DNA of 45,174 nt, from positions 1-45,174 of the forward strand of contig JAUCBJ010000822.1 in NCBI GenBank assembly GCA_032718475.1, written 5' to 3'. Both the position numbers and the translations under genes were made by a program. Source of the DNA: Nemertoderma westbladi. Its lineage: Eukaryota; Animalia; Xenacoelomorpha. How positions within the stretch are numbered: the stretch's first letter is position 1; every line of letters starts with the position of its first letter. Positions 3,637-40,852 of the stretch are shown one piece after another. Under the pieces are notes generated by a model. The model worked only from the letters and a program-made list of their open reading frames with translations. It had not been told where the DNA came from and made no database searches.

Positions 3637-3675
3637 CAGTCTGCTATAGCCAGCTATCTGATACAATTTCTTCTG

Positions 3676-10100: not shown

Positions 10101-10572
10101 ACTAGGTATAACAGGGAGGAAATTACATAGATCTTTATTTCTTTTTGTTAATTGAATTTTATTTGTTATACCTTTTTGTGATTTCAATAATATATATAGC
10201 AGCCCGGCTCTGTGTAGTACCTTTATTGTATATGTGTGTATATTTGAATACTGTATGTATGTGTGTGTGTATGTGCTGTCTGTATGTATATGCACTGTAT
10301 GTGTTGTATATAGCATACAGTAGGCATGGGTAAATTAATATGTTTTCTGTGCAATATCTACTGTATATTAAAATCCTTATTTTTATTTTTTAATACTTTA
10401 TGTAGGGCGAGGCGGTCTACCGTAGGTAAGTCAGTCTGTCTAAGACAGCTGTTTGATTATAGACGCTTATTAATTATCAGTATCGTGTACTATGTATTGC
10501 GTCTACTGCCTTCGTAGCCCTAATAAGGCTTAGAAGTATTTGTGAATAAAATAATTATCTTATCTTATCTTA

Positions 10573-15899: not shown

Positions 15900-17533
15900 G
15901 TAAAAAAGTTTAGAGTGCAACTGCCCCCACTAATGTATCATTAGATGAATTAGTTCTATTTATTAAAGAAGTTATAGCATTGAAATAAATGTGTATAAAA
16001 CAATAACAAATACACCAAACAATGTACCGGTATAAAGGTATTGTCCAACATAACATATAGGATTACCCCTAAAGCTTCGCAGCTTATTTCCAAGGGGGTC
16101 CTTGAGTTCCGCCGCGACCACAATGCATGACAGTAAAATTGCGTACAAAAACATTGAAATAATTTAATCTTAACACTGGTTGAACATTTATTAAATTTCC
16201 TAATTAGTAAATTACAACGATTATAAAGGCTATGTATGTAATTGGTTCAAAATATCAAAGCTGTCATCAGTTGAGTTGTGAATAATATATATTTATACTT
16301 AGTCACAGCTTCTAAAATTGCACCTTTAATATAAATCTTGTAATTGATTATAATTGAATGTTCAAGTAACTTTAATATATTTCTATTAGTTTTTCATTCC
16401 ATGAAATTAATTGGAAATCAATCCCAAATCATCAGCGTAAATGAGATGATTAGATATTTTACCCCCAAGTTCGCACCCAACGTTAGAATTTGTGAAAAGC
16501 ACACTGAGGTCATCTAGGTACAGACTGTAAAGACGTGATGAGATTATACCTCCCTGTTTAGTTCCATTAGTAACATGGAACCTAGTGGAGATACAACCTC
16601 CCCACCTCACAGTAATAGTCTGCAAACGATACCAAAAACGGAGTACTCGCACAAAAAATATTGGAAATTTACGATCAATAAGTTTAGAAATAATTTATAA
16701 TGATTGACTAAATCGAAGGCTTTGGAACAATGAAGAAATACAGCAGCATATACAGGCTATCTCTTTTAGCTTGTAAACACATAATTATGTACATAGACCT
16801 TTTTTTAAACCAAATTGTGAGTCCGTTGTATGAAGGTGTTCAATATAACGATTAAGATAAATAAGTTCTAGAATTTTACTTCCAGAATTGGATGTAGCAA
16901 TACCTCGATAATTATCAGAGTCGGTTATGTCTGCATTCTTATCCTTGACGAGAGGAATTAGATTGGTGTCCATAAGAGTCTCAGGAATGTATCCGTGAAC
17001 ATTAATAATAGAGAAAAGTAGAGCTAGCTGTACGGATAGGCTAGCGGGACCATGCTTAAAATGCTCACTGACTAATCCATCAGGTACAGCACATTTACCG
17101 CTAGCTAGAGTACTTATACCAACAGACATTTCAACAGGCGAAACAGTCATGTCTTTCGTGTAAATAATATTTAAAAACTTATTTTCAAGTGACAACTTGA
17201 GAGAATCATTGTTCACTGAGTTGTGCAAATTTGAAAATTTATTTTTACAAAAATCACATATTTGCACATCCCCGACGGCACTACCTACTTTACCAGATAA
17301 AGGAGTGTTCAAACCACAATTATTTCTCACATTGCGCCATACATTTTTACTGGTTAAAGAATTCGCAATACGATTGATACAAAGTTGCTGCACCTTAGAC
17401 TTGCACTGACGCATTGCGCGTTTAAATGTTAATTTCGATTTTATGTAATAGTCATAAATTGGACCAAAACGAGGACAGCCATTCGACCTCCAGATTTTAA
17501 AATTAACTCTGGATTCATCATAACGGTCCTTAT
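15900..17533 (-). pseudogene. Degraded non-LTR retrotransposon ORF2 (RT), split by the BEL/Pao insertion
   Basis: LIPLVKDK..DSDNYRGIA, QFGLKK, GTKQGGIIS and HLIYADDL. The reading frame continues across the LTR element from 31945. Confidence 0.85.
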
Positions 17534-18070
17534 TGTTAGCTTATTCAATCCCGCTAACACCCCATAAAGTTATAAGCCGATAAGCAATATTGGGAGCCAC
17601 GAGATTGGATAATTAACCAACTCGTGCCATCCCAATAAGAATGGGAAGGAAGCACACAATAGAGGGTCAGGGGCCAAACCCCTAACCCAGAGAGAATAGG
17701 TGGAGTGAACGGGAACACTCCAAAGGGCGCCAACAAGGGTATCAACCAATCAGAGGGGGGCAAGGCATCGATTAGGTAGTAATTAGGCCAACCGTGCAAT
17801 ATAACCAGTAACCCAATATCAGTAATTCAGTTATCTCAGTGCAGTAGTGCTAGTATAGGTTAGTTAGTTTAGATAGGGGAGCACGGGACTTTAGTTACCG
17901 TATCCCGCCTTCCATATATTATACTATCATCAGATCATATCTATATCTTATACCAATTATATACAGCGAACATCAGAACTCATTTACCGTTTCCATTTAC
18001 TCTTTACACACGGCGGGGACGCATAAGCTAAACACCGGATAAACCGGGATCCCTCCTGGATCCCGTCACA
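17534..18070 (+). repeat. 5' LTR
   Basis: Identical to 31404-31940 except A18023/G31893 by eye. TATA-like TATAA at 17800 and Inr-like TCAGT at 17819-17840. Confidence 0.97.
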
Positions 18071-18138
18071 GTAACTAAATCAGCTGCCGCCCTAGATAAA
18101 CTCAATAACCACTAGCCACCGAAATCTGCAGAAGAGAG

Positions 18139-19632
18139 ATGAGTCGGTCAGGTGATACGACACCGACGCGGACCCCGGACGAAGAGCTAACGATCCGCGA
18201 GGCCGCAACCAGGCGATACAGGCCCACGACGCCGGACCCATCGGTAACGGGTCATCCGGCAGTTCAGGACGAGGGGGACCTGGAACCCGAGGTCGAGCCG
18301 AGAGAAAGAGAGAGCGAGGCGGAGGGAGAAGGAGACGAGTCGACACGGGACGGGGGTCGACGCACCGGTGTCGCCGGCCAGCCACAGGCCGAGAGCGACG
18401 AGCGGCCCACCGAAACGGCGACGGTGGGGCCGACGGTGCGGCCCCGGACGCAGGGAGACGAAGGGGATATCGATACCGATGTCGCCGGCCAGCCACAGGC
18501 CGAGGGCGACGGACGGCCCGCCGGAACGGCGACGGTGGGGCCGCCGGTACGACGTCGAACCCGGAGAGACGGACGAGGGGTCGGCGACGAGGACGTCGGG
18601 GTTTCTGAGCGACTTCGACGGGCCTACAACGCGACCCAGAGACTACTAGATGAAGCCAGAAAGGGGAAAACGATAGACGAGGTAAAACTGAAGTCAGGAC
18701 TAGGTAAGTCGGACAGACATTTATACTATCTAATGCGTTTCGGGCAGAGAGAATTGGCCGAGGAGAGAGCGAGAAAGGTTGCCGAGGAATTGTATGACTC
18801 ATGGGGGTATGGGGGTATACAACCTAGTGTAGTGTACATAGGGCCATATTTAATCGATGCCCGGGGTATAAAATTAATGGGTTGGAACAGACCTGAAGGG
18901 GGCGAATCCGAGGTTAACCCCGAGGATTCGGCCTCGTCGGTCGGAGGGAGTTCCGGGAGGAGGGGGAAAGCTAGTAGATCGGGAAGTTGGAGGGAGTCCG
19001 TCGTAACCGATAAGTCTGCTACATCCTCCGCGAAAGAAAGACTGGTGAGAGAGGCAGGTGCCGCGTACCGTCTCGAGCTGATAGAGCAAGGTCAGAGGGA
19101 AATGGATAAACGGCTAGAGGAGGGGAGAATGCGGCTAGAGAGGGAAGCGGCATTGATTAGAGAAACCGGAGAGAGGGCCGAAAGGGCTTTGAGAGGCCTT
19201 AGGGAGTGTGAAGAGAAGGAGGAAAAGGAGTGTAGGGAACGTGAGGCGAGAGAGGAAAGGGAACGCAAGGAGCGTGAGGCGAGAGAGGAAAGGGAACGCA
19301 AAGAGCGTGAGGTGGAACGTAAGGAGTATGAGGCGAGAAAGGAAAGTGAACGTAAGGAGCGTGAAGCGAGGCGAAGGGAGAGTGCTAGGAAAGTAGTGGA
19401 GCTGGTTGAGCGGGACACGCGGGAGTGTGAGAGGAGAATGACAGGAGCCGAGCGAGACCAGGAGGAATTAAAGAGACGCCAAAGTGAGCTTGGGGAACAT
19501 AGGGTTAGACGCGCGCACGAGCTGCAACTGGTGCGGGCGGGGGTGTCTGAGAGCGAGACAGGCTCGAGTATTTTAGAGGAGCCAGGGGCCGTGGATACAT
19601 TTATTAATACCCCACTTACAGGGACCGCATGA
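18139..19632 (+). CDS. Gag N-terminal region (repeat-rich, long E/R/K coiled coil); probably continuous with downstream gag-pol
   Basis: ATG lies 68 bp after the LTR. 497 aa with an internal 37-aa duplication and a coiled coil. A +1 shift in 19577-19630 joins it to the next ORF. Confidence 0.7.
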   Translation: MSRSGDTTPTRTPDEELTIREAATRRYRPTTPDPSVTGHPAVQDEGDLEPEVEPRERESEAEGEGDESTRDGGRRTGVAGQPQAESDERPTETATVGPTVRPRTQGDEGDIDTDVAGQPQAEGDGRPAGTATVGPPVRRRTRRDGRGVGDEDVGVSERLRRAYNATQRLLDEARKGKTIDEVKLKSGLGKSDRHLYYLMRFGQRELAEERARKVAEELYDSWGYGGIQPSVVYIGPYLIDARGIKLMGWNRPEGGESEVNPEDSASSVGGSSGRRGKASRSGSWRESVVTDKSATSSAKERLVREAGAAYRLELIEQGQREMDKRLEEGRMRLEREAALIRETGERAERALRGLRECEEKEEKECREREAREERERKEREAREERERKEREVERKEYEARKESERKEREARRRESARKVVELVERDTRECERRMTGAERDQEELKRRQSELGEHRVRRAHELQLVRAGVSESETGSSILEEPGAVDTFINTPLTGTA

Positions 19633-19648
19633 CAGACCCAAAACTGGT

Positions 19649-20554
19649 GTGACCGTACGGGCGGGGGGGGGGGGTAATAATGATAATGGTACAGTAGACG
19701 TGGTTAATATTAATAGTACCGTATGGGATAATTCTAATCAAACCTTTATTGCAGGAAATACTTTGCCTAGTGGTAGTAATTTAAATTTAAATCAGAATAA
19801 TCCTAATATTAATGTAGAAAATAATTCTAATATTAACGTAGTTACACAAAATAATTCAAATAATTTAAATAATGATCCAAGCCCGAATTTACAAAATAAT
19901 TCAAATGATTTTATTTCGAACGAACGAATTAATTCCGTTTCCAATATGGGTGCTATTAACGTAAACACGTCGGGCGTGTATAGCCAGACAAACGGGGGCC
20001 TGGTAGGTCATGCAGTTGGTGGGCCGGAAGTAGCTGGGTTAGGTAGACCCAGCGAGGGCCTGGTAGGCCACGCAGTTGGTAGGCAGGAAGAGGCTGGGTT
20101 GAATAGACCCAGCGAGGGCCTGGTAGGCCACGCAGTTGGTAGGCAGGAAGAGGCTGGGTTGAATAGACCCAGCGAGGGCCTGGTAGGCCACACGGTTGGT
20201 AGGCAGGGAGTAGCTGGATTAGGTAGACCGAGCGAGGGCCTGGTAGGCCACGTAGTTGGTAGGCAGGGGGTGGCTGGGTTGAATAGACCCAGCGAGGGCC
20301 TGGTAGGCCACATAGTTGGTAGGCAGGGTGCAGAGGGCCTGGTAGGCCACGTAATAGCAGAGGGAGAGGCGGGGGTGAATAGACCCGACCGTGATAGGGT
20401 TGATGTGTCGACTAGAGAGGGATATAGTAGCGGGATGAGAGATAGCGAAGTTAGATGTGGCGAGTGGGGGGGGGGGGGGCTACGGGAGCCCCACAACAGC
20501 GAGTTAGCGGCAAAAAGGGGGGGCAGAGAGTGTCCCACAGCCGTCAGCGGATAA
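19649..20554 (+). CDS. Gag low-complexity segment (Asn-rich tract and 20-aa tandem repeats)
   Basis: Open frame bounded by poly-G runs and containing GLVGHAVGRQEEAGLNRPSE repeats. Confidence 0.55.
   Translation: MTVRAGGGGNNDNGTVDVVNINSTVWDNSNQTFIAGNTLPSGSNLNLNQNNPNINVENNSNINVVTQNNSNNLNNDPSPNLQNNSNDFISNERINSVSNMGAINVNTSGVYSQTNGGLVGHAVGGPEVAGLGRPSEGLVGHAVGRQEEAGLNRPSEGLVGHAVGRQEEAGLNRPSEGLVGHTVGRQGVAGLGRPSEGLVGHVVGRQGVAGLNRPSEGLVGHIVGRQGAEGLVGHVIAEGEAGVNRPDRDRVDVSTREGYSSGMRDSEVRCGEWGGGGLREPHNSELAAKRGGRECPTAVSG
19995..20350 (+). repeat. 60-bp coding tandem repeat, about 6 copies
   Basis: gagggcctggtaggccac recurs every 60 bp. Confidence 0.93.
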
Positions 20555-20629
20555 TGCGAGGGCCGAAATAGGTAAACCGCAACAACCGGCGACGGAGAGT
20601 AATAGGGGGATTGTGAGTGCCCCAGCGGC

Positions 20630-23600
20630 GTGCGACTGAGTAGAGAGAGACAGGTTGACGTCGTGAGGGGGCGGACGAAGCGTCGAGCCCGATCAGAAGA
20701 GGGAAGAGGAACAGTGGGGTTTAACCGGGAGGTCGACGAGAGATCTCACGAGCGGGAATACTCCACTGATAGGAGAAGAAGAGAAGACAGTAGTAGAAGT
20801 ATCGCCGCAAACGATAGAAGAGCGAGGACGGATAGCGAGCCGTCGGTAGTCGAGATGAGGACAGAGAGTCAGTGGGGTCGGACTCCGGGAGATTGCCGTC
20901 GCCCCGGAGAGATGCGACCCGGCGAGGCGCACTACGCGCCGAGAGAGGGGTACGCGATGTACCGGTACGAAGATGAGAACAGTAGAGAGGGGGGTCGAAG
21001 AGAAACTTTCCGACGGAATACACCTATCGATCGAGAATACGGTAGCCGCGGGGAAGATTATTCGAGAAGAATAAACTTCGATCCCGAACAACACATGCAG
21101 ACTGTAGGACATACTGTAGGCCTTACTGCACATACCATAGGCCATACTGAGAGAGGCAATGTAGGCGATAGGATAGCGTGGACAACGGGATTAAACCCGG
21201 AAGTCGCGGAATACATACCGGCGGGTAGGCCAGAAGCTGATAGGCCTATACCGGTACCAGCACAGCAGTATGACTACAGCATGCAGGGACATAACATATA
21301 CCCAGGGGAGGGGGGAATTATTGCGGATAGGTGTATGGGCCCCAATATATTAACATCAACCCCAGTACCAAACATACCGGTGGGGGGGGAGGGACAGGGT
21401 GACATTCCCCCATCACAATATCAACAATATACCCCGATAGGAGCAAGAACAACGAGACCCTTAGATGAAAATAGGTCGTGTGACACAGAAATATGGAGGG
21501 GGCCACTACCCCCGATGACATACCCAAGTCAGAGAAGATCGAGAAATAGGACGGACGAACCGCACCAGACAGGAGAAACTATACAGCACCCGTCGAATCC
21601 ATTGGAAGCGCAGGCGATGGGGATGGCTACGTTGATCGATGCGTTGAAAACGAGGATCGAGCTACCACCCGTGGAACCATTCAAATTCGATGGGAGTAGG
21701 CCGGAAGAATATCTACAGTTTCGGCGCATGTATAGTAACGAAATACTAACAAAAAACTTGACGCAGGCGGAGTGCCTAAAGTATCTGCAAGTATATACGG
21801 GAGGCCCAGCATACGATATCGTGAGGCAATATCAAGGAATAGAGGGCGGCTTCACGACAGCATGGCGGGCACTGGATAGGGAATACGGGCACCCGGCCAA
21901 GATTATCAGGCAGACGCTGAGGGGCATAACATCGGGTGGCCTACAGGATAACCCCGTTAGCATTAAGACGTTCGCTAACAAAGTCGAAAAGGCGCTAATC
22001 GTGCTGAAGACGCTAGACGCGCCGTACGAGCTCAATGCATCCAACAACATCACCACGATAGCGCAGACACTACCAAACTGGCTGCGCAATAAGTGGAGGA
22101 AAATCGCCTTCTCCACTCGAGATAAGAAGGGTGCGGAACCGGGTTTAGAAGAAATGTCAAACTTCTTAAACTACGGGGCTGAACTGATAACTGACCCAGT
22201 TTATAGCGAAGACAGCCTGGGAAAGGGACCGAAGACAGACTATCATAGACCGAAACCAGAGCACAATACATCAAACGCATTACCGAGACTCAGGCAATCA
22301 TTGCCATATGCAGCGACGCAGGGGACTACAAGTCCACAGCTAGCCGAAGATAAAACAACACCGTGGAACGGACAGGGAAACAATAACAACACAAATAAAC
22401 ATAACCCCAGTACGTCCAGTAGGCAAAATCCAAACAATAAGAATAGTAGGGACTTTGGTACAAACGCAACTGCGATACGCAACGCACTGTATAAAGAGGG
22501 CTACGACCCAAAGAGCAAATGCCAGCTACACGCAAATGCGCTTCATCAAACCATGAACTGCAGGTACTGGCAGGCGCTACCTAGGCAAGATCAGATAGAT
22601 TATGCGTTCAGCAATAAAATCTGCTCGCGATGTGTAATGAGTGGACATAGAGCAAGGGAGTGCAAGGAGAAGCCAATGAAATTTGGTCAAAGGAGAGGCC
22701 AAACGATGGCGACGAGCACAGTAGGGGCGAAGAAGAGGGGAACGGTGCTACTTGGAGTAGTACCAGTGCGAGTGATCGGGGAAGGCAATCGATCAGTAAC
22801 AACACTAATGCTGGTTGATAGTGGAGCTGCCTTCACATTAGTCGAGGAATGGGTGGCCGTGGAGATAGGATTGAGAACGAGGCCAAGCAGGATGGCGGTA
22901 ACAACCATCTCTAGCAAAGATGAGGTCCTGGAGATGAGAACAGGACGGTGCGCAATTGCAGCAGTGGCACCAGGATGCGACTATGGGGCAACCATCGACC
23001 CCATCCAAGTGATAGAGTCAATTAATATTAATGCCAGGCGACCAACCAACATCGAGGTCGAGCAGTATAAATTTCTGGACGACATTGACTTCTCAATCCC
23101 AGACGTGGACGTTAGGAAGGTGTCCATCATAGTAGGCATGGACTGCCCAACGGCCCACGAAAGAATGCAAACGGTCTTCGGCGAAGACAAGCAGAGTGAC
23201 CCGGTGGCAATTTTAACACCATTCGGGTGGACGCTCAGTGGTCCGATCAAGAGTAAGATACCATTTAGGATGTCGGAGACATCAAGATGCATGTTCACAG
23301 GAACAATGCAGGAAATGGGTGACGAGGGAGCAGAAGAGCAGCTTAAAAGACTGCTCAGACAGGATTTCGAGGGACTGAAAGAAACCGGAGTCGGGACCTC
23401 AGTAGAAGACAAGCAGGCTCTACAAAGCGTGGAGGAATCAATGACATGCGATGAGGGACGGTATACTATAGGAATGGTATGGAAACTACCGAAGATACCG
23501 CTGCCCGACAATAGGGGGATGGTACTCACGAGGCTCCGCAAACTGAAACAAACACTAAAACGGAGCCCCGAGAAGAATGAGTACATCCACAGAACAATTA

Positions 23601-25087
23601 AGAAGTACGTCGAGAAAGGATGGGCCGTGGAGTTACCGGTCGACGAGCCGAACACGGATAGGACATATTACCTGCCACTGCACGTGGCTTTAGATCCAAA
23701 GAAAGGTAAACTAAGGATGGTAGTCGACGCATCGGCAAAGACCGACGGAAAATGCTTAAACGATTACCTGTTAGAAGGCCCAAACATATACAATTCGGGC
23801 ATAGAAGTGTTACTTATATTTAGAAATGGGAAACACGCCTTCACGTGCGACATAGAAGGCATGTTCAACCAAGTCCGTGTAACGGAAGAAGATAGCGACA
23901 GTCAACGCTTCTTATGGTATAACGGCGAGGAAGAACCGCCGATAATACCAGCATATAAGATGGTAGTACAGAACATGGGGGCCAAGTCGTCTTCATTTAC
24001 GACGACTATGGCAGTGAGAGACACAGTAAAGGGGAAGGAAGATAGATACAGCAGTAGGGCCGTCGATATGATTCGACGCGGTTTCTACGTAGACGACGGA
24101 ATGGAGTCTGGAAATACGGTTAAGGAGATACTGGATACAGGGCGCGAGGTTCGCGACATCCTAAAGGGATCCGGCTTTAACCTGACCAAATTCCAATCCA
24201 GTTCGGAAGAATTTACCAAGGCGATAGAGGACAGGAGACCAGAATCGACCATGGATAATCCCACAACAGCCAAAGGGCAGGACATGGCAATTAAGAGAAC
24301 AGAATCTCAACAGAAGGCATTGGGAATCGTGTGGAACAGGGAGACAGACGAATTGAAGTATCAGCTGAGCCAGGAGGGCGCAGACATCCACACGAAAAGG
24401 GGCTATGTATCGTATATAGCAAGGATATACGATCCCCTAGGCCTAGCATCCCCATTATTAGTCACGGGGAAACAGATACTCAAGAGAGTATACAAACTGA
24501 AGGATGAGTGGGACGTAGAGGTACCAGAGGAAATCAAGAAACAGTGGAGCAAGTGGACAGGAGACTTGGAGAAGATGGGAACATACAACATCCCACGGGT
24601 GTATTTCCCGGATGGGAACATGACGAATCTGGACCTACACATGTTCTCCGACGCGTCGTTGGAAGCGTACGGAGCGGCACTTTACTTAGTACAACGAGAG
24701 GGGGCTCATAAGCCAAGACTAGCCTTTAGCAAAGCAAAGTCAACGCCGCCAGATTCAGCATCAGTTCCCAAGTTAGAATTGACAGCCGCGAGGCTAGGAG
24801 TAAGGGCCACAGCCTACCTAGTGGATACTATTCCCAACATAGTGGAAACACACTACTGGACGGACTCCATGGTAGTGCTTGGTTGGCTACACAACGAAAG
24901 GACGAGATACCCGATATTCGTCGCGAATAGAGTGGACGAAATAAGGGCGAGCACAGAACTAGGAAAGGTGGCACTACTGCCCAACAGACGAGAACCCAGC
25001 GGACTTGCTGTCGAGGGGCGTGGAACGCCACACTTTCCTGAAGAAGGAAGTATTGTGGCAACATGGGCCACAATTTCTGAGCGATAG
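20630..25087 (+). CDS. BEL/Pao Gag capsid-like domain, zinc knuckles, aspartic protease, RT and RNase H
   Basis: EPFKFDG..EYLQF, CQLHANALHQTMNC, CSRCVMSGHRAREC, LVDSGA, TPFGW, YYLPLH, RMVVDAS, DIEGMF, FYVDD, YDPLG, FSDAS, PKLEL, YWTDS and FVANRV. Confidence 0.95.
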   Translation: MRLSRERQVDVVRGRTKRRARSEEGRGTVGFNREVDERSHEREYSTDRRRREDSSRSIAANDRRARTDSEPSVVEMRTESQWGRTPGDCRRPGEMRPGEAHYAPREGYAMYRYEDENSREGGRRETFRRNTPIDREYGSRGEDYSRRINFDPEQHMQTVGHTVGLTAHTIGHTERGNVGDRIAWTTGLNPEVAEYIPAGRPEADRPIPVPAQQYDYSMQGHNIYPGEGGIIADRCMGPNILTSTPVPNIPVGGEGQGDIPPSQYQQYTPIGARTTRPLDENRSCDTEIWRGPLPPMTYPSQRRSRNRTDEPHQTGETIQHPSNPLEAQAMGMATLIDALKTRIELPPVEPFKFDGSRPEEYLQFRRMYSNEILTKNLTQAECLKYLQVYTGGPAYDIVRQYQGIEGGFTTAWRALDREYGHPAKIIRQTLRGITSGGLQDNPVSIKTFANKVEKALIVLKTLDAPYELNASNNITTIAQTLPNWLRNKWRKIAFSTRDKKGAEPGLEEMSNFLNYGAELITDPVYSEDSLGKGPKTDYHRPKPEHNTSNALPRLRQSLPYAATQGTTSPQLAEDKTTPWNGQGNNNNTNKHNPSTSSRQNPNNKNSRDFGTNATAIRNALYKEGYDPKSKCQLHANALHQTMNCRYWQALPRQDQIDYAFSNKICSRCVMSGHRARECKEKPMKFGQRRGQTMATSTVGAKKRGTVLLGVVPVRVIGEGNRSVTTLMLVDSGAAFTLVEEWVAVEIGLRTRPSRMAVTTISSKDEVLEMRTGRCAIAAVAPGCDYGATIDPIQVIESININARRPTNIEVEQYKFLDDIDFSIPDVDVRKVSIIVGMDCPTAHERMQTVFGEDKQSDPVAILTPFGWTLSGPIKSKIPFRMSETSRCMFTGTMQEMGDEGAEEQLKRLLRQDFEGLKETGVGTSVEDKQALQSVEESMTCDEGRYTIGMVWKLPKIPLPDNRGMVLTRLRKLKQTLKRSPEKNEYIHRTIKKYVEKGWAVELPVDEPNTDRTYYLPLHVALDPKKGKLRMVVDASAKTDGKCLNDYLLEGPNIYNSGIEVLLIFRNGKHAFTCDIEGMFNQVRVTEEDSDSQRFLWYNGEEEPPIIPAYKMVVQNMGAKSSSFTTTMAVRDTVKGKEDRYSSRAVDMIRRGFYVDDGMESGNTVKEILDTGREVRDILKGSGFNLTKFQSSSEEFTKAIEDRRPESTMDNPTTAKGQDMAIKRTESQQKALGIVWNRETDELKYQLSQEGADIHTKRGYVSYIARIYDPLGLASPLLVTGKQILKRVYKLKDEWDVEVPEEIKKQWSKWTGDLEKMGTYNIPRVYFPDGNMTNLDLHMFSDASLEAYGAALYLVQREGAHKPRLAFSKAKSTPPDSASVPKLELTAARLGVRATAYLVDTIPNIVETHYWTDSMVVLGWLHNERTRYPIFVANRVDEIRASTELGKVALLPNRREPSGLAVEGRGTPHFPEEGSIVATWATISER

Positions 25088-26054
25088 GGAGGCCTGGCCG
25101 CCGATGAGGAAGGTGGACCCGGGCTCGGAAGTAGTATCAGAAGGAGAAGAGGGAGATTCAGAGGGAGAAGAGATATACTCCCAGATGGTGAGGGAGATTA
25201 GGGACGTGCAACCAGGAAGGGAACTGTGCGATAACCCAACGGATAAACTCCTCAGCTACAGTTCTAGTTGGTATAAGACCAAGAAACTAGTGGCGTATTG
25301 GAGAGCCTTCGGGAATTTCCTTGCGGGAGTTGGCAAGGACAAGAAAATCAGGACAACCATAGATCTGGAGGGAGCGGCCAAGGCAGTGATCCGCTATGAA
25401 CAACGGAAGAACTACGGCGACGAGGTGGAACGCGTCGGTAACCAACAGCACCTCCGACGGGACAGCGAGCTGATTACGCTGTCGCCACAACTCAATGACG
25501 ACGGGATTCTAGTAATGAATTCTAGGGTGGGATACAACAATAGCATAGTCGTACCACCGAAACCCATCATCATTCCTACAGGATCGCCAATAGTCCACCA
25601 GATTATATGGGACTCCCACAAATCGATATTGCACGGGGGCACCAACCGAACCCTCACAGAGATAAGGAGGACCTATTGGGTCAAACAATTAAGGAAGAAG
25701 GTTAAAGCGGTAGTGGGGCAGTGCCAGACCTGCCGACGGGCGAAGAAGGAGCGAGCCATACAGGAGATGGCGCCACTACCGGCGAGTAGGGTAAGACAGC
25801 ACGACCCGCCATTTACGCATTGCGGTGTGGACATGTTCGGGCCGATAAAGATCAAGGTGATGCGACACACGGAGAAACGCTACGGTATTATCTTCGTATG
25901 CAACAATACGCGGGCGGTAGGGATAGAACTCGCCCAAGATGCAACCGCATCAGCGTTCATTAACGCCTTAGAAAGGTTCAGGGACCTGCAAAGGTGGGAC
26001 GATCGCAGTGATATACAGCGACAACGGCACCAACTTTGTGGGCGCAGAGAGTGA
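24968..26054 (+). CDS. Pol continuation: RNase H end, integrase zinc-binding domain and core start (frameshifted)
   Basis: WHYCPTDENPADLLSRG begins in the new frame near 24968. H..ILHGG, CQTC and GVDMFGP are present. Confidence 0.9.
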
Positions 26055-26727
26055 AATGGCAGAGGCCTTGGACATCTTGGAAGGGGAAGAAGTCAGGGCA
26101 GCCATGAGACGACGAGAGGTAAAGTGGGAGAGAAGGACGCCGTATGCACCACATACACTAGGATGCGTCGAGAGACTGGTGGGCAGTTCAAAGCGTCTAA
26201 TGACAAAGCTAATGAACACCCACATGGTCACTGAGGACGTCTTACGGACAGTACTTGCGAAGTGCGAGGGGATCATTAATAGCAGACCGCTATATCCGGA
26301 GAATGACGACCCTGAGTCACTAGACGTGTTAACGCCTAGCCATTTCCTAATGGAAAGACCAGCGACCATCGATATGCGGGGTGTAGACCCAGATGACATA
26401 CACTCCCGCCAAAGTTGGAAAGTCGCAAAGGCAATAAGCGCTGAGTATTGGAGGAGGTGGGTCGAGGAATACCTACCCACGCTCCATAAGCGAAGCAAAT
26501 GGAGGAAACCGAACAGGGAGTTAAGAGCAGGAGATCTTGTAATCGTTACGGATGATACTATCATCAACAACCAGTGGCGGTTGGCGAGAGTTGTAGACAC
26601 CTACTCCGACGAGGACGGAAGAGTCCGATCGGTAGAAGTGCGGATAGGTGGAAAGATAGGTGCGAAGGACAGAAAAACCTACAAGAGAGCAGTAGGGAAA
26701 TGCTGTCTTCTAGAAGGGGCACCTTAG
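26008..26727 (+). CDS. Integrase core end and BEL C-terminal domain (frameshifted)
   Basis: IYSDNGTNFVG, GCVERLV, INSRPL, LTPSHFL, WVEEYLP and DGRVRSVEV. Confidence 0.92.
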   Translation: MIYSDNGTNFVGAESEMAEALDILEGEEVRAAMRRREVKWERRTPYAPHTLGCVERLVGSSKRLMTKLMNTHMVTEDVLRTVLAKCEGIINSRPLYPENDDPESLDVLTPSHFLMERPATIDMRGVDPDDIHSRQSWKVAKAISAEYWRRWVEEYLPTLHKRSKWRKPNRELRAGDLVIVTDDTIINNQWRLARVVDTYSDEDGRVRSVEVRIGGKIGAKDRKTYKRAVGKCCLLEGAP

Positions 26728-26849
26728 AAGTGGAGTTAGCGCTTAGTTTAGTCGTCCAAGTTTTGGACTGAGGGGGGTGGGATTGAGGGCGAGACGCCCT
26801 TCCCACATATAAAATTTGAAAAATAAAATAAAAATAAAATAATAGTACA

Positions 26850-27675
26850 TGAGTAGGTACGCAGTTAGTAGGCAGAAGGTACGTAGTACCTAATTAGTTA
26901 GTAGGTACGTAGTACCTAGAGTTAGTTAGTTAGTTAGTAGGTACGTAGTACCTAGAGTTAGTTAGAGGGTTAGTAGGTACGTAGTACCTAGTTAGAGAAG
27001 TTAGTTAGTAGGTACGTAATACCTAGAGTTAGTTAGAGGGTTAGTAGGTACGCAGTACCTAGTTAGAGAAGTTAGTTAGTAGGTACGTAGTACCTAGAGT
27101 TAGTTAGTTAGTTAGAGGGTACGTAGTACCGTTAGTTAGAGAAGTTAGAGGGTACGTAGTACCGTTAGTTAGAGTTAGAGTTAGAGGGTACGTAGTACCT
27201 GAGTTAGTTAGAGTTAGAGGGTACGTAGTACCGTTAGTTAGAGTTAGAGTTAGTAGGTACGTAGTACCGTTAGTTAGAGTTAGAGTTAGAGGGTACGTAG
27301 TACCGTTAGTTAGAGTTAGAGTTAGAGGGTACGTAGTACCGTTAGCTAGAGTTAGAGTTAGAGGGTACGTAGTACCGTTAGTTAGAGTTAGAGTTGGAGG
27401 GTACGTGGTACCGTTAGTTAGAGTTAGAGTTAGAGGGTACGTAGTACCGGTAGTTAGAGTTAGAGTTAGAGGGTACGTGGTACCGTTAGTTAGAGTTAGA
27501 GTTAGAGGGTACGTAGTACCGTTAGTTAGAGTTAGAGTTAGAGGGTACGTAGTACCGCTAGTTAGAGTTAGAGTTAGAGGGTACGTAGTACCGTTGTCAG
27601 AGTTAGAGAGTCAGAGGGTACGTAGTACCATTAGTTAGAGAAGAGTTAGAGTTAGAGGGTACGTGGTACCATTAG
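26850..27675 (+). repeat. Internal tandem array (about 30-36 bp units: GGTACGTAGTACC plus TTAG/TTAGAG)
   Basis: Directly visible; units converge on gagggtacgtagtaccgttagttagagttagagtta. Confidence 0.95.
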
Positions 27676-27701
27676 AGAGAGAGAGAGTAAGAGGTAGAAG
27701 G

Positions 27702-28149
27702 GTATATAAGATATAGATATTAGTTAGCAGTTAGTAGAGAGAGGGGGGCATATGAGTACAGCTGGGTAAGTCGTGTGGCCACACGACGCACACTGCTGTA
27801 CTGCATAGGCCAGAACACAGAGTAGGCCAGAATGTGGATTAGAGAATAGAATAATCCATAGGCAGTAGTAAGTAGCAGGACAGTAGAATCAAATTAAAAT
27901 AGATAAATAAATAGAATAGGGCTGAAAGGTGTACAAATAATGGCAACACAAGGAAAGTTATTCTAGAACATAATAAAAGTAACGGACAGAAATTGTAAAT
28001 TACGCCCATTTACTAGCTTCAAAATTAATTAAGGATAATTTAGGTTAAAAGGCGCAGTTAAGTAGGAAATAGGCCATTATCGAACTGTACAGAACATCCT
28101 AGATACATCACTCATCTGTATTGCGCCTTGGTAAGGCACCACCTTGCAG
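27702..28149 (+). promoter_or_regulatory. Putative internal promoter and 5' intron for the accessory ORF
   Basis: TATATAAG at about 27703, donor GG|GTAAGT at 27766, branch-like CTCAT at 28111, acceptor CCTTGCAG ending 28149, and ATG at 28171. Confidence 0.45.
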
Positions 28150-28170
28150 GTGAGCGAGTGAACGTTCGGA

Positions 28171-29889
28171 ATGGCGAGCAAGTTGATCAGAAAGAGAAAG
28201 GCGGAGTCAGGAGGAAAGGAGATACTGGTGGATTTCACCGAGAGGCATCCGGAAGAGAAGATGAGAGGATACTACGAGAAGTTGGAAAGGGGTCACGCGG
28301 CACGAGCGCTGCAGGATCACTTCCGGGAGATGCACGAACAGCGGCTGGTCGGGACCTACGGGACGCCGGTGCTGGACAACGCGATCTTCCAACACTTCCA
28401 CTACGTGGTGAAAGGGGACGAGGCGAAGTTCGGGATTCCGAAGTACCCGAGGGAATCACCGAGGAAGGACTGGAAGAGATTCATAGAGTCCGTCAACAAA
28501 GGAGGATATATGATCCTAGACGACGAGGGAACCGTGGAAGACGAGGCGGGTTCGAGACGAGGAACGGCGGGGTCGGCCAGGACCATACTCCTACATTTGG
28601 CCGCGCCAAATGGGGACATCTTCTTATTCGATCTAGGAACGTATGGGAAGAAGGACGGGCCGAAATTAGACCGGTTACCGAAAGCGGTACAAGTCTTAGT
28701 AAGAGAGAAATCGACGACGAAAGTGGGATCGGCGATTCGCGAGGATGCGGAGAGGATCATCGGTCCGGACGCCACCAACCTCCTGGATATGCAGAAAGTC
28801 TTTATGGCTATGACGGCACCGAATGGATTGGGGGTGGTCGAAAACACAGGCCAATGCGGGGCGGTGGCGATGGGCCAATTATTGGGGCTCGTATGCCACA
28901 AACCAATGGATTGGGGGAAGTTCAGGGAAGAGTACGGAGCAGAACTAGCGAACTCGCTAAAGTGGGGAGCGAGACCGGGAAAGCAGGAGGTATATCAATT
29001 CCGCAGAGGAGCGATAAAGGTATATCAGAAGCGATATATCCTGCAGGAAGACTGGATCATGATAAGTTTGCTTAACTTATTTATGACCGTGGTTGTCGAG
29101 AGGGAACCAGGGGCATTTCTGTTATCAGGATCACCCCTAAGCTACAGGAGAGCCTTTAAGACGGCCTTTGACGGTCTGGTAGACCACCCGGGGCTGAAGG
29201 GCGAGTCGGCGTACTACAACAGCCAGCATCTGGTAGACGGGGAGACAGATACACCGTATCAGAGATGGGAGCAGCTAGAAGCGGATAGACGAGAAGCAAA
29301 GCGACTGGAAGAAGTCGCCAGACAGGAGAGGATAGAAGCGGAGGAGAGGGAAGAGGAGGCCAGGACACAGAGTTACGGCTTCGAGGAACAGGCAGGCCTA
29401 GATGAACTTCATTGGACTTCATCAGGGAGTTCGGGGGAGTCTCTAGGGCGAGAATTGGGATGGACGGTGGGATCACCGAAACAGTCGACGTCGGGGTTGC
29501 AAACGATGCCCATACCGGCGGGCGCCGAGGGCGACCAACTGCCAAGGAAGTTACGGGAGCTAGAGGGATGGAGAGCTACGGGCGAGAGCCAAGGCGGGAA
29601 GGGACATAGTGGATCCATCGGGATACCGGGGTTGGAAACACTACCAGAAGAGGAGGACAACGACGACGAGTTCGGAGAGATGCCGCCCATCGAGAGGATA
29701 GGCCACTCGGACACGGACTGGGTTGGCGGAAGGGTGGTGACGGCCAGTGGGGCGAGGGCCTTCGCACGAGAACCCGGCGATGGATTTCGCGGGGAGCATT
29801 ATCAGGTTGGGCGAGCAACCGGGGACGGCACCACGGATAGTATTCGGGGAGACGATGCCCGAGAGGGGCGGAGAGATCGACGTAGATAG
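28171..29889 (+). CDS. Accessory ORF part 1: DEDDy (DnaQ-fold; WRN/EXD/Mut-7/RNase D-like) 3'-5' exonuclease
   Basis: ExoI ILDDEG (28513-28530), LLHLAAPNGDIFLFDL, LPKAVQVLVREKSTTKVGSAIRED (ExoII), NLLDMQ, G..AMGQLLG...HK and QKRYILQED (ExoIII-like). N-terminal basic KLIRKRK. Confidence 0.75.
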   Translation: MASKLIRKRKAESGGKEILVDFTERHPEEKMRGYYEKLERGHAARALQDHFREMHEQRLVGTYGTPVLDNAIFQHFHYVVKGDEAKFGIPKYPRESPRKDWKRFIESVNKGGYMILDDEGTVEDEAGSRRGTAGSARTILLHLAAPNGDIFLFDLGTYGKKDGPKLDRLPKAVQVLVREKSTTKVGSAIREDAERIIGPDATNLLDMQKVFMAMTAPNGLGVVENTGQCGAVAMGQLLGLVCHKPMDWGKFREEYGAELANSLKWGARPGKQEVYQFRRGAIKVYQKRYILQEDWIMISLLNLFMTVVVEREPGAFLLSGSPLSYRRAFKTAFDGLVDHPGLKGESAYYNSQHLVDGETDTPYQRWEQLEADRREAKRLEEVARQERIEAEEREEEARTQSYGFEEQAGLDELHWTSSGSSGESLGRELGWTVGSPKQSTSGLQTMPIPAGAEGDQLPRKLRELEGWRATGESQGGKGHSGSIGIPGLETLPEEEDNDDEFGEMPPIERIGHSDTDWVGGRVVTASGARAFAREPGDGFRGEHYQVGRATGDGTTDSIRGDDAREGRRDRRR

Positions 29890-30691
29890 AGAGACCAACG
29901 TAGAGAAGTTCACCTACCAGCGACTCCACAGACCGCGGAGATCGCTTGGGACGAAGGACGAGGTGGGACGGGAGACATTGGTACTCGGCTGCGACTACTG
30001 TGGGAGACAGACCCACCAAGAAAAGAATTGCCTTTACCGGTTCCAAAAGGGAACCTTTTGTCTCTACTGCCGAGAACAAAGCCACAGGATGGGGGCGTGC
30101 CCACGGTTGCATAATCGATGTACAAAGTGCCACTTTCGGGGACACTACGGACGCGAGTGCGACTGGGTGAGCGGCGGGGAGAAGTTCACAAGGTTCGAGG
30201 AGTGGGCCGACGTCGGGGCCATGACGCGCCAGCGCATGAAGGCCCAGGAGTTTAAGTGGGGTTTCTTCCTTATCAATCAGGAGACTCACATGGAAATCAT
30301 AAAGCGGAGGCTACCGTTTACCCACCAAGAGGTAGCAACGGCGGTGTCGTACGCTGGAGTGATGAACACGCAAAGGTATCTGGACAGGTGGACGCCAGAG
30401 AACCGAAGAGAGTTTAGGGATTTCTTGGCGGAGCACGTACCAAAGGCAATGAAAATGATCCTATGGGACGCCACCAGAGGGAGACAACCGGGCCACTCTG
30501 AGGGGCCACCGGCGAAGCGATATCGGGCACTAATAACACCAGCGCCCAAGGAGCCAACGACCGGGATCAGCAGGGAGGTGGCGGCGAAGGTCCGAAAGCA
30601 GAAGGCGGATGATGCCAGAGGAATGGTGATAACCAAGAAACGACCCAGGGAAGAGGACGCCAGGGGGAACTATCCCCAGAGGAACAGATAG
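29747..30691 (+). CDS. Accessory ORF part 2: three tandem CCHC zinc knuckles; probably the same gene as 28171 via a +1 frameshift
   Basis: CDYCGRQTHQEKNC, CLYCREQSHRMGAC and CTKCHFRGHYGREC are all CX2CX4HX4C. Basic NLS-like PPAKRYR and KKRPR. Confidence 0.8.
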   Translation: MGRGPSHENPAMDFAGSIIRLGEQPGTAPRIVFGETMPERGGEIDVDRETNVEKFTYQRLHRPRRSLGTKDEVGRETLVLGCDYCGRQTHQEKNCLYRFQKGTFCLYCREQSHRMGACPRLHNRCTKCHFRGHYGRECDWVSGGEKFTRFEEWADVGAMTRQRMKAQEFKWGFFLINQETHMEIIKRRLPFTHQEVATAVSYAGVMNTQRYLDRWTPENRREFRDFLAEHVPKAMKMILWDATRGRQPGHSEGPPAKRYRALITPAPKEPTTGISREVAAKVRKQKADDARGMVITKKRPREEDARGNYPQRNR

Positions 30692-31394
30692 GTTCCCAGA
30701 GTCGAGGGAGAGAGACTGGAACTTGGACGTGGTACGCCTGGAAGGCGCCGCGTGGGACGTACGAATTATTAAGTACAAATTCAATTAATGCAAATAATCA
30801 TATAAGTGCAATTTGTATGTACTGATGTGATTAGTAATCTACGAATATACGCTGGGAGTAAGTACTATAGTCATACAACCTTTCTCAATTAGCTACTGGG
30901 ACTGGGGGGTAAACTGACTATGGCACTATGGACGAGACACCAGACAATTTCACACTTCTTGAGTGCGACGGCACAAGAGGGGGGGGGGGGAGATTCGTCA
31001 GAAGGGATGAGGTAGTCAGAGTAGGGTTGAGGGACAGAGTAGTAGGTGCGAAGTGCGGAGAGCGTGCGGACGCAATTCTAGTGTGGGGGGGGGGAGAATA
31101 AGAGGCTGAGTGAGGGACGAGGAGGTCCGAGTGTATGAGAGAGTTAGGGTGAGAGTGAAGAGGAGATAGGGCGGAAGTGTTGGGGAAACAAAAGTTGCGT
31201 GAGAGGTGAGCGCGATCGGCCCGACATGAGACGCCAGGCACACAGGGTAGCGTTATCATACCCATAGGGGGCAGCCTGGAAAGCCGACTCTGAGAGAAAA
31301 GAATTCCACCCCACACCCGATACTAGATCGGGATCCAGCGGGATTGTAGCGCACTTTTTTGGTTGATGCTATCTTCTTACCGGGAAGATAGCAT

Positions 31395-31403
31395 GGGGGG
31401 GAG
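31395..31403 (+). other. Polypurine tract
   Basis: GGGGGGGAG immediately precedes the 3' LTR TG. Confidence 0.85.
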
Positions 31404-31940
31404 TGTTAGCTTATTCAATCCCGCTAACACCCCATAAAGTTATAAGCCGATAAGCAATATTGGGAGCCACGAGATTGGATAATTAACCAACTCGTGCCAT
31501 CCCAATAAGAATGGGAAGGAAGCACACAATAGAGGGTCAGGGGCCAAACCCCTAACCCAGAGAGAATAGGTGGAGTGAACGGGAACACTCCAAAGGGCGC
31601 CAACAAGGGTATCAACCAATCAGAGGGGGGCAAGGCATCGATTAGGTAGTAATTAGGCCAACCGTGCAATATAACCAGTAACCCAATATCAGTAATTCAG
31701 TTATCTCAGTGCAGTAGTGCTAGTATAGGTTAGTTAGTTTAGATAGGGGAGCACGGGACTTTAGTTACCGTATCCCGCCTTCCATATATTATACTATCAT
31801 CAGATCATATCTATATCTTATACCAATTATATACAGCGAACATCAGAACTCATTTACCGTTTCCATTTACTCTTTACACACGGCGGGGACGCGTAAGCTA
31901 AACACCGGATAAACCGGGATCCCTCCTGGATCCCGTCACA
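31404..31940 (+). repeat. 3' LTR
   Basis: Direct repeat of 17534-18070, followed by the CTTAT TSD. Confidence 0.97.
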
Positions 31941-32190
31941 CTTATCTAAATCATTCCAGCCTGGAACTGTTTTTTGTTTGACTTACTAATTGAGCGTTTG
32001 GGTAATGATGTCTGACCTGCATTTTTGATAGCGGCAATAATAAATATCATTGTATAAATTATCTATTGCACCAAATTGATTTAGGTATAATTTCTGCAAT
32101 AAAACCGAATAGTTTTTGTCATTTTTAGAAGAATGATTTGAGATTCCAACATGCTCCTTGACATTGCCATTATCATTGCAATCCATTAAT
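31941..32190 (-). pseudogene. Upstream part of the LINE ORF2 interrupted by the BEL element
   Basis: Joined across the TSD it reads KTVPGWNDLDK|DRYDESRVNFKIWRSNGCPRFG, the PGWN..W..G.PR.G linker motif of such LINEs. Confidence 0.75.
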
Positions 32191-37767: not shown

Positions 37768-40700
37768 ACTAGAAAGCCTGTGGCCCTTCGGGCCACAGCT
37801 TTCTAGTGCACGTGCAGATGATATATGAATATGTGTGGGAGATTTGAGAACTGCATACGGAACAGACACCATCATTAAATAAAACACCACCCCCATAAGA
37901 GATAACTGTCAAGTTTCAACTTTAGGCAGATTGTAAATAACAAAATTTCCAGAAAATGATCACTTTCAGATCCACCCTCTACCTGCGGACTGGTGAAATG
38001 CAGACGGCGCTGCAGTTTGGTAAAGATGGGGTTTATGGTGAAGTAAAATGCCTGCCTTTCAAGTTTCAGCTTAAACAGATTGTAAATAACAAAATTGATG
38101 TAGATGTTCACATTCAGACATTTCACCCTCTAGCGGTAGACTGAAGAACTGTGGACGACTCTGGGACTCCGTAAAGATACAGAATATGCTGTAGTAGGTA
38201 GATTCCTGCCAAGTTCCAGCTCAATAGGATTAAAAAGAACCAAATGGGATGAGGTGTTCACTATCAGATATGTCGCCCTCTAGCGGCAGATGGGGGGACT
38301 GTATACAACTCTGTGACTCCGTAAAGGTACAGCCTATGCTGTAGTAGATGCCTACCAAGTTTCAGTCTAAACCGTTAGTAAATAACAAAGTTGGAGAAGA
38401 TGTTAACTTTCAGACATTTCACCCTCTAGCGGTAGACTGGGGAAGTGAATAGGATTCTGCAACCCCGTAAAGATACAGCCTATGATGTAGTAGATACCAA
38501 CCAAGTTTCAGCTCAAAATGATTAAAAAGAACCAAATGGGATGAGGTGTTCACTATCAGATATGTCGCCCTCTAGCGGCAGATGGGGGGACTGTATACAA
38601 CTCTGTAACTCCGTAAAGGTACAGCCTATGCTGTAGTAGATGCCTACCAAGTTTCAGTCTAAACCGTTAGTAAATAACAAAGTTGGAGAAGATGTTAACT
38701 TTCAGACAATTCGCCCTCTAGCGGCTGACTGTGGAACTGTAGACGACTCTACTACTCCGCAAAGATATAGCCTATGCTATAGTAGATGCCTACCAAGTTT
38801 CAGTCTAAAAGGATTGTAAATAACAAAGTTGGAGGAGATGTTAACTTTCATACATTTCGCCCTCTAGCGGCAGACGCGGGTAATGTAGACAACTCTGCGC
38901 GACTCAGTAAAGATATAGCTCTATAATTCTAGTTCACAAGCCTATTCACCATTCCAAACATTAGATTAATTAATTAACTTAACTTAACAAAACGTCACAT
39001 GATTGAGTGTTCTCTCAAACAGTGTCGCAGTGTCCGAGTGGATACGGCGCCTGAACTGCTTACACAATAGTGTTTGGTGGTGCAGGTTCGAATCCGACTA
39101 AAGGCTGTATAAATTTCGCACTGTTGTGTCCCTAGACAAGACACTTTAGACATTAGTGCCTACGCCAACCCAGCGGTATAATGGGAACCTAGCTTTGCTG
39201 GGGTAATGATAATAAAAGCGCTTTGAGTATGCTGAGCGTAGAAAAGCGCTATATAAATAACCAATATTATTATTATTATTATTATTATAAAGAAAAGGAT
39301 TGAAGCTGTTTTACTTTTCAAATATCTACATACTACGTACAACATAAGGCTAAGGTTGTATTAAAGTAGATAAATACCTGCCAAGTATCATTTCCAAAGG
39401 ATTACAAATAGTAAAAATATGCAAGAAGGTTAAACTGTAGAACTGCAGGTGGTTATCATCCTCATAAACACAACCTATAGTTTATTTAGTTTAGTAGGTA
39501 GTGCACAGTACTTTTAGATCGCTGCCAAGAATAAACTCTAAAGAATTTAAATGGGAGAAGGATTTCACTTTCAGACAATTCGTCCCCTAGTGGCGGACTG
39601 GAGAACTGCAGACTGGTCAACGTCCTTCCCAAAGACGCAGCTTATGATGTAGTACAGTAGACCTCTGCCAAGTATCAGCCTAAAAGCATTTTTAGTAAAT
39701 AAATGTGAGAATGTTTTCACTTTTCAGACATTTCGCACCCTCTAGCAGTATACTGGAGAACTGCAGACTGGTTAGCATCCGCCCCAAACACACAGCCTAT
39801 GGTGTAGTATACCTTTCCCAAGTATAAAAAAAAGCATTAGAAACAACGAAATGGGAGAAGGTTTTCATTTCAGACATTTCACCCTCTAGCGGCAGACTGA
39901 GGAATTGCAGATTGGTCAGAGTTGTCCACAAAAACGCAGTCTATGGTGTAGTAGACCTCTGCCAAGTATCAGCCTAAAAGTATTATAAACAACGAAATGG
40001 TATAAGGTTTTCACTTTCAGATATTTCGCCCCCTAGCGGCCGAATGGAGAACTGCAGGTAGTTGGGCGTCCTCCACAGACACACACCATATGGTGTAATA
40101 CACATCTGCCAAGTGTCAGCCTAAAAGCATTATTAATAACGAAATGGGATAAGGTTTTCACTTTCAGACATTTGGCCCCCTAGCGGTAGACTGGAGAAAT
40201 GCAGACTGATTCTAGCTCGTCCCCAAACACGCTGTATGGTGTAGTAGACCTCTGCCAAGTATCAGCAAAAAAGCATTATAAACAAAGAAATGGGATAAGG
40301 TTTTCACTTTCAGATATTTCTCCCCCTAGCGGCAGACTGGGGAATTGCAGATTGGTCAGCATCCTCCCCAAACACACAGCCTATGGTGTAGAAGACCTCT
40401 GCCATGTATCAGCTAAAAGGCTTTAATAATAACGAAATGGGAGATGTTTTCAGTTTCGGATATTTCGCCCCCTAGCGGCAGACTGGAGAACTGCAGATTG
40501 ATCAGTGTCCTCCCAAACACACAGTCTATGGTCGGGAACAGATCTGCAAAGTATCATTTAGAACAGATTAAGTCTGGTATCAAAAAGTAGCATAATAGTC
40601 GAGACCCAACATGTAGAGTGACAGAATGAACTGCTAGGCCTACTGCGCTACCGGTACCAAATTCACGAAATCTGCATTCACGCAAACAAACGCGTAAAAT

Positions 40701-40800
40701 AAGACTCGAGATAGCGACAGTGCACGTGCTCGTGACGAGAGCTTTCGTTCGATGTATCGCGAGCTCAGATTGGTGCTTGTGTGTAGAAACGTATAGCTTG

Positions 40801-40832
<32 letters not shown>

Positions 40833-40852
40833 CATGATATTTATATATATAG
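37768..40852 (+). mobile_element. Helentron/DINE-1-like non-autonomous element, copy 1
   Basis: Terminal hairpin actagaaagcctgtggcccttcgggccacagctttctagt, internal 146-bp repeats, (GACA)n microsatellite and atttatatatatag end. Confidence 0.6.

Follow-up and report, generated by a model that had tools for sequence, protein, structure and literature searches.

We analysed a 45,174-nt stretch of the Nemertoderma westbladi genome (assembly GCA_032718475.1, contig JAUCBJ010000822.1, forward strand), hereafter the window, in whose positions all coordinates are given. It contains a BEL/Pao retrotransposon with a third open reading frame (ORF3) between the integrase and the 3′ long terminal repeat (LTR). 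Judging from sequence comparisons, ORF3 is a real, conserved accessory gene other than an envelope gene (env), in which a DnaQ-fold exonuclease-type domain and three CX2CX4HX4C knuckles are likely fused in the family and are separated by a frame break in this copy. Third genes of the DEDDy exonuclease type are already known from LTR elements of rotifers; a BEL/Pao carrier is unreported in the literature that we found.

ORF3 contains a predicted exonuclease domain of the WRN/EXD2/Mut-7 subgroup

ORF3 was compared with five kinds of profile, and the best E-value therefore bears a small multiple-testing cost. A profile of 35 WRN/EXD2-like domains, the named ones all eukaryotic, matched residues 136–222 with 18.0 bits (E=7e-8; 0 of 5000 shuffles); across 58 ORFs of the window the runner-up scored 4.9 with the same profile. 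A profile of thirty bacterial WRN-like domains gave 5.9 bits (0 of 5000 shuffles), and when an alignment of 29 such domains was compared with PDB, WRN, Mut-7 and EXD2 ranked first, the WRN exonuclease being the top solved match of this seed profile's family. In the ESM Atlas, 24 of the 30 matches to ORF3 fell into clusters carrying PF01612 (DNA_pol_A_exo1). Three fungal clusters without a name headed the list; among the rows with PF01612 the highest was a ‘Werner syndrome-like exonuclease’, which scored 0.93, had 176 features in common with ORF3 and bore the family on 38% of its members. Support from hhalign was weak (E=0.003 and 1e-4). Searches with ORF3 returned no nuclease from Pfam, NCBIfam or PDB sequences, no relative from a protein database clustered at 90%, covered for near and shorter lengths, and none from plasmids or from metagenome and viral contigs. 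The sole match among 50% representatives (P0001) was discarded as a repeat-protein artefact.

An RNase D profile scored 0.8 bits and a short RNase D (NrnC-like) profile −1.8 bits, neither a match, and Pfam gave no HRDC domain in ORF3. On these grounds an RNase D or Rrp6 type was rejected, with no Rrp6-specific profile among those used. All the DnaQ-fold motifs quoted in the original prediction, which had been made from the DNA letters alone, are present in ORF3, and the fold itself is matched by the WRN/EXD2-like profile at the E-value given above. Taken together, the profile evidence assigns ORF3 a DnaQ-fold exonuclease-type domain of the WRN/EXD2/Mut-7 subgroup.

Global alignment assigns D117 and E119 to ExoI, D192 to ExoII, and Y289 and E293 to ExoIII. 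The last motif reads Y289-x3-E293, with an Asp one residue further on; since the global alignment places E293 in ExoIII, the fourth acid is Glu and not Asp. The DEDDy label of the original prediction thus stands for the domain type, which the profile recognizes beyond chance, but not for the fourth acid, and by its sequence the predicted nuclease is DEDDy-like with a non-canonical fourth acid rather than canonical DEDDy. Structures were modelled and used for a fold search, as the original prediction had suggested. A single-sequence model reached a predicted local distance difference test score (pLDDT) of 31. An alignment-guided model (pLDDT 68) matched DEDD enzymes at every top rank listed (Z up to 11.7, root-mean-square deviation 3.6, 177 aligned), but the guide makes this match circular, and it serves as a compatibility check only.

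Layout of ORF3 and the frame break

In this copy ORF3 is read in two overlapping frames (Table 1). The roughly 840 codons originally described are there as sense-strand coding sequence over 28171–30691, but not as a single ORF. The three knuckles had been correctly recognized, as had the charged linker after the nuclease domain, in the first frame, and the basic patches resembling nuclear localization signals, which lie at both ends of the coding region. A search of all six frames of the window found the CX2CX4HX4C pattern elsewhere only in the gag knuckle; because gag already has its own, the ORF3 knuckles are extra ones. Against zf-CCHC_4 they gave E=0.0018, under the curated cut-off. The N-terminal extension matched no Pfam family, and the region after the knuckles had no match in the ESM Atlas.

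Membrane features were judged by a hydropathy scan only (19-residue windows). The highest value was 1.44 in the first frame, where it coincides with the ExoIII helix, and 0.38 in the second; the scan of ORF3 showed no membrane helix and no signal peptide or anchor of the envelope type. Together with the basic N-terminus, this low hydropathy indicates that ORF3 is not env, in agreement with the original prediction.

For comparison with other copies, contigs were taken from public runs that three studies had made of this organism (run labels X1, X2, X3 and X5). The contigs are short, and read depth is not usable as copy number. At 29761, X1 and X2 list no depth, and many contigs start or stop at about 29763. 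Near this site nine X2 contigs have loose ends, and one X5 contig spans it with extra sequence. Because the run contigs stop, fray or add sequence at 29763, we conclude from these alignments that this copy bears a deletion relative to other copies, which shifts the frame. The nuclease domain itself is unbroken. Read by eye, the form of the other copies at the break fits a single continuous frame, and fusion of nuclease and knuckles in one protein is likely for other copies of the family.

The sequence ahead of the ORF3 start codon (27703–28170) has features of its own: a TATA-like box at 27703, a hairpin with 24-bp arms at 27755–27802 and splice-site-like motifs near 28130–28155. They possibly represent an internal promoter or a splice acceptor for ORF3.

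Conservation across copies and a decayed homolog

Besides a missing DnaQ-fold match, the original prediction had named two outcomes as adverse, absence of the ORF from other copies and a ratio of nonsynonymous to synonymous changes (dN/dS) near 1. The data point the other way in both respects. Taken together, the contigs of three runs span all of ORF3, with 7949 contigs in X1, 4716 in X3 and 85 in X5. The listed changes were mostly silent, in a tally among listed substitutions that is not a formal dN/dS. Two views were scored: 40 listed substitutions out of 505, from which 4 non-coding ones were dropped, and, in a closer view, 40 listed out of 155, of which 36 were scored and four were shared with the first. 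Of the 28 changes listed for the first frame, 21 were silent; read in the two other phases, 7 and 4 of them would be, and about 31% is expected (p=2e-6). The nuclease core had 13 silent changes among 14 listed and the second frame 4 among 8 (first view), and the closer view gave 9 of 19 for the linker and 7 of 12 for the knuckles. An overlapping frame at 28062–29075 was rejected as a gene, with only 4 of the 28 listed changes silent in that phase.

At the E293 codon (29049) the listed change is silent, and all four runs have it as their majority or sole form; the Glu is therefore not private to this copy. The listed change at one knuckle-ligand codon is silent as well. These comparisons indicate that ORF3 is a multi-copy gene under purifying selection.

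A decayed homolog lies at the start of the window on the opposite strand. With the element masked, tblastn found it at E=2e-11, 4e-7 and 6e-6; identity to ORF3 is 48% over residues 44–105 and 28–31% over the core, and the ExoI D-x-E and the ExoII Asp are retained. The WRN-like profile gave no score on this homolog, whose identity rests on tblastn, and no pol stands alongside it within the window. On its strand it is preceded by 20-bp tandem arrays (959–2271), like the 36-bp array before ORF3.

Two further observations concern the copies. A deletion derivative without the ORF3 C-terminal region, with a joint that skips 30154–30722, occurs in X1 and X3. A further run (X6), possibly of RNA, carries the label of a second organism; compared with 27750–31400, it has eight low-depth contigs that match pieces of ORF3, and these may come from a related species or from mixing of samples.

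It seems very improbable that ORF3 is a passenger, captured by the element or nested in it as a fragment, and does nothing for it. Such an origin would fit the breaks in both ORF3 and gag-pol of this copy, the existence of deletion derivatives such as the one just described, and the homolog without pol in the window. It would also fit the finding that no one contig joins ORF3 to pol in other copies, a consequence of short contigs. The strong silent-site bias among the listed changes argues against it, as does the share of contigs continuing into unlike flanks, which is 0 in X1 and X3 (0.17 in X5). Furthermore, no terminal inverted repeat pair surrounds ORF3 among the 25 longest of the 26 pairs listed.

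A possible role in removing element RNA

What might such a gene do for the element? Our favoured reading, which we hold tentatively on the basis of sequence and analogy, is that ORF3 may encode a knuckle-guided 3′–5′ RNA exonuclease. Nuclease and knuckles would be made as a single protein in other copies, and the basic patches would direct it to a nuclear or perinuclear site. There the knuckles would bind single-stranded RNA and the exonuclease domain would trim the 3′ end of the RNA they hold, so that element-derived RNA fragments would be cleared before host small-RNA silencing can use their ends.

We favour an anti-silencing role because the gene is apart from gag-pol, because it is Mut-7/Nibbler-like and because such genes recur in unrelated elements. 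Nibbler and Mut-7 work in small-RNA pathways. In rotifer LTR elements, third ORFs of the DEDDy type have at least two origins, according to an account that also mentions mut-7 (PMC5408684); this repeated origin suggests a generic rather than a lineage-specific benefit. The trypanosome RNase D offers a precedent for the architecture: in it, four CCHC fingers accompany a DEDD domain and grip the RNA during trimming (PMC7797062).

Several points weigh against this reading. The fourth acidic position is Glu, and the canonical Y-x3-D of DEDDy enzymes is not there. About 20–30 extra residues separate ExoII from ExoIII; owing to this insertion and the Glu, ExoI and ExoIII rest on the global alignment, outside the significant local match. 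One alignment has E123 and not E119 in the ExoI Glu column, while the decayed homolog favours E119. All 5 listed changes just past the knuckles alter the amino acid (0 of 5 silent). The sole contig bridging the frame break (X5) seems by eye to hold an in-frame stop there; the loose-end sequences at the break, also read by eye, are without that stop. DNA is also a substrate of WRN-type enzymes. Finally, in the rotifer account the DEDDy ORFs had no clear link with copy number and did not depart significantly from neutrality (PMC5408684).

Even with Glu as the fourth acid, we lean towards a catalytically active enzyme. It is unlikely, in our judgement, that ORF3 is instead a weak or inactive pseudo-nuclease in which the DnaQ fold, with the knuckles, forms an adaptor that binds, carries or protects element RNA, in the manner of Egalitarian or EXD1. 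The Glu itself and the basic patches at each end would suit an adaptor; both EXD1 and Egalitarian are among the fold matches, level with active enzymes, and catalytically inactive DEDD derivatives function in piRNA biogenesis (PMC5408684). However, carboxylates are present at all four positions and the ExoIII Tyr is retained, and even the diverged homolog has kept the ExoI and ExoII acids.

A role on DNA, in which the enzyme would proofread reverse transcription or trim cDNA ends before integration, appears quite unlikely. In its favour, the WRN exonuclease leads the solved matches of the seed profile's family, and the DEDDy domain of the Dada transposon has been proposed to act in 3′-end processing (PMC3706591). 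Yet ORF3 stands as a gene of its own, 1.4 kb 3′ of pol and unfused to reverse transcriptase (RT) or integrase, and its nearest knuckle-bearing architectural analogue trims RNA. Copies in the runs are also diverse, many less than 90% alike, although age alone accounts for that.

The BEL/Pao element

The element occupies 17534–31940 on the + strand, 14,407 nt in total (Table 1). Pfam matches follow the order DUF1759, aspartic protease, RT, Peptidase_A17 (E=1e-40), Integrase_H2C2 and DUF5641, and both the BEL-specific gag-pol signatures and the order protease, RT, RNase H, integrase are present. The LTR length is within the 0.2–1.2 kb range of BEL/Pao, and a target-site duplication and a polypurine tract are also there. 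By its Pfam signatures, and with its LTR pair, the element belongs to BEL/Pao (Belpaoviridae), as had been proposed. Its length exceeds 4.2–10 kb, a typical but non-defining trait in the profile of the International Committee on Taxonomy of Viruses (ICTV; PMC8742986). Since the two LTRs are near-identical, one base apart, and CTTAT is found on both flanks, the insertion is recent. Queries with pol found no related loci.

Three stretches of the element deserve description. A coding stretch of about 2.5 kb before the recognizable gag (18109–20554) is of low complexity, with charged helices and 60-, 33- and 111-bp repeats; it has no Pfam match and is unusually long for BEL/Pao. The spacer between pol and ORF3 measures 1443 nt. 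A hairpin with perfect 11-bp arms (31366–31394) stands immediately 5′ of the polypurine tract.

Table 1. Positions of the features of the element and of the ORF3 homolog in the window.
Feature	Position	Strand	Basis or remark
Homolog of ORF3 residues 44–247, diverged, frameshifted and decayed; runs off window start	5–533	−	tblastn
5′ target-site duplication CTTAT	17529–17533	+	Same as 31941–31945
5′ LTR, 537 nt, TG...CA	17534–18070	+	1 mismatch against 3′ LTR
LTR-internal 9-mer, candidate self-primer	17890–17898	+	Complementary to 18071–18079
Primer-binding-site position without TGG-type tRNA site	18071–18079	+	
gag-pol (gag, protease, RT, RNase H, integrase)	18109–26727	+	ORFs and Pfam; several frames, broken in this copy
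gag-pol ORFs	18109–19632, 19577–20554, 20606–25087, 24963–26054, 25972–26727	+	
36-bp tandem array, about 22 copies, within pol–ORF3 spacer	26896–27694	+	
ORF3 first frame, 572 aa: basic N-terminus, N-terminal extension, exonuclease domain, charged-helix/low-complexity linker	28171–29889	+	
Conserved N-terminal extension, residues 44–105	28300–28485	+	48% identical to homolog at 336–533
WRN/EXD2/Mut-7-type DnaQ-fold domain	28459–29100	+	Profile match, global alignment, ESM Atlas
Candidate catalytic residues D117, E119, D192, Y289, E293	28519, 28525, 28744, 29035, 29047		Global alignment
ORF3 second frame, with three knuckles, C-terminal region and basic tail; 316 codons between stops	29741–30691	+	
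ORF3 frame overlap	29741–29889	+	Break near 29763
Three CX2CX4HX4C knuckles	29990–30031, 30059–30100, 30119–30160	+	Pattern search
Polypurine tract, 9 nt	31395–31403	+	Read from sequence
3′ LTR, 537 nt	31404–31940	+	Comparison with 5′ LTR
3′ target-site duplication CTTAT	31941–31945	+	

Priming of reverse transcription

TGG is absent from the 70 nt following the 5′ LTR. By this check, which covered the TGG motif, the element lacks the 18-nt tRNA primer site that the ICTV profile gives as a typical, non-defining trait (PMC8742986). A 9-mer within the LTR is complementary to the primer-site position, with the polarity fit for a primer; 58 of 5000 LTR shuffles reach 9 nt. On extension, 11 of 12 positions are complementary, and the pairing probability in the folded ensemble is about 0.34. 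Based on its sequence the 9-mer is a candidate for a self-primer like that of Tf1, which relies on 11 complementary bases and is made by RNase H alone (PMC7175516); self-priming in plants has been treated as well (PMC6317226).

This bears on a further reading of ORF3, in which the 9-mer pairs at the primer site and the RNA 3′ tail, left unpaired, is shortened by the exonuclease as far as the duplex. The family would then be a tRNA-independent BEL/Pao lineage with its own primer-maturation enzyme, the knuckles holding the paired 9-mer and trimming yielding the 3′-OH. Both the maturation step and the family-wide picture strike us as quite improbable. A 3′–5′ enzyme does have the needed chemistry, and the lack of a TGG-type site and the polarity of the 9-nt complementarity agree with it. 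On the other hand, the pairing is short and forms with the modest probability given above, RNase H alone makes the Tf1 self-primer (PMC7175516), and packaging is not assured because ORF3 is outside gag-pol.

A solo LTR about 73% identical, from a related subfamily, lies at 8189–8742 on the − strand, with TG...CA ends and a GTTAC target duplication. Its segment corresponding to the candidate self-primer differs, while the flanks on either side are conserved.

Other features of the window

The solo LTR is inserted in a broken long interspersed nuclear element (3367–10130) with AP endonuclease, RT and a weak GDSL-esterase match in its ORF1 (E=0.005). Arrays of a 146-bp satellite-like unit are found at 38053–44121.

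Comparison with known systems

Among Belpaoviridae, the closest comparison is with elements that have an env-like third gene, such as roo and the mosquito gB-type elements (PMC8742986; PMC13524379). Pol signatures, domain order and LTRs are alike, and the third gene likewise stands before the 3′ LTR; here it encodes a nuclease-knuckle protein. At 14.4 kb and without a tRNA-type primer site, our element also differs from the described family members of 4.2–10 kb (PMC8742986). The ICTV profile lists gag, pol and env-like genes only (PMC8742986), and in term searches the word exonuclease was absent from PMC3118150, PMC13524379 and PMC8220671. We found no report of a BEL/Pao exonuclease gene in the full-text literature, a scope that leaves out most subscription papers, Repbase and Dfam.

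Dada DNA transposons also encode a DnaQ-like exonuclease with a DEDDy domain, but theirs sits inside the DDE transposase and has the four canonical DEDD residues (PMC3706591), whereas ORF3 is a separate gene with Glu. With the cellular WRN/EXD2/Mut-7 (Nibbler) enzymes of PF01612, ORF3 shares the profile match, the ExoI D-x-E, a KVG...D ExoII and a Q-x-x-Y ExoIII. Identity to them is about 20–25%, and ORF3 differs in the ExoIII Glu for Asp, the insertion before ExoIII and an N-terminal extension of its own.

The architecture most resembles that of TbRND of Trypanosoma brucei (PMC7797062; PDB 7C42–7C4C), in which a DEDD exonuclease is likewise followed by C-terminal CCHC fingers. When the alignment-guided model was compared by Foldseek, TbRND came first; in another comparison it was tied with others. 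It is a cellular, mitochondrial protein with four fingers and a 28-residue linker (PMC7797062), whereas ORF3 has three knuckles, a linker of about 300 residues and a mobile element as carrier. We regard the likeness, by architecture, as an analogy rather than as evidence of ancestry.

Juno and Vesta, two of the bdelloid rotifer elements with a comparable third gene, are gypsy-like, whereas the carrier here is BEL/Pao; the two are compared by description only. As the original prediction had stated for rotifer elements, DEDDy ORF3s have been published, namely for Juno, Vesta and the Terminons, with the motif DEED and no demonstrated activity (PMC5408684; repeated in PMC6431247 and PMC5718144). 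In Juno/Vesta and Athena/Terminon, as here, a DnaQ-like exonuclease gene stands 3′ of pol in the env position and has no membrane features (PMC5408684; PMC6431247). Both also have an altered acidic motif, DEED in rotifers and D-E-D-E here. The rotifer ORFs are termed RNase D-like (PMC5408684), whereas RNase D profiles fail on ORF3, and the words CCHC and zinc are absent from the main text of that paper, whereas ORF3 has three knuckles. Retrotransposon DEDD nucleases have so far been reported from rotifers, without a demonstrated function. If our reading is true, LTR elements have repeatedly and independently captured RNA-trimming enzymes, here from a different nuclease subgroup and with knuckles added. 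ORF3 would then offer a compact domain for asking whether transposons in animals bring their own defence against small-RNA silencing or a priming aid.

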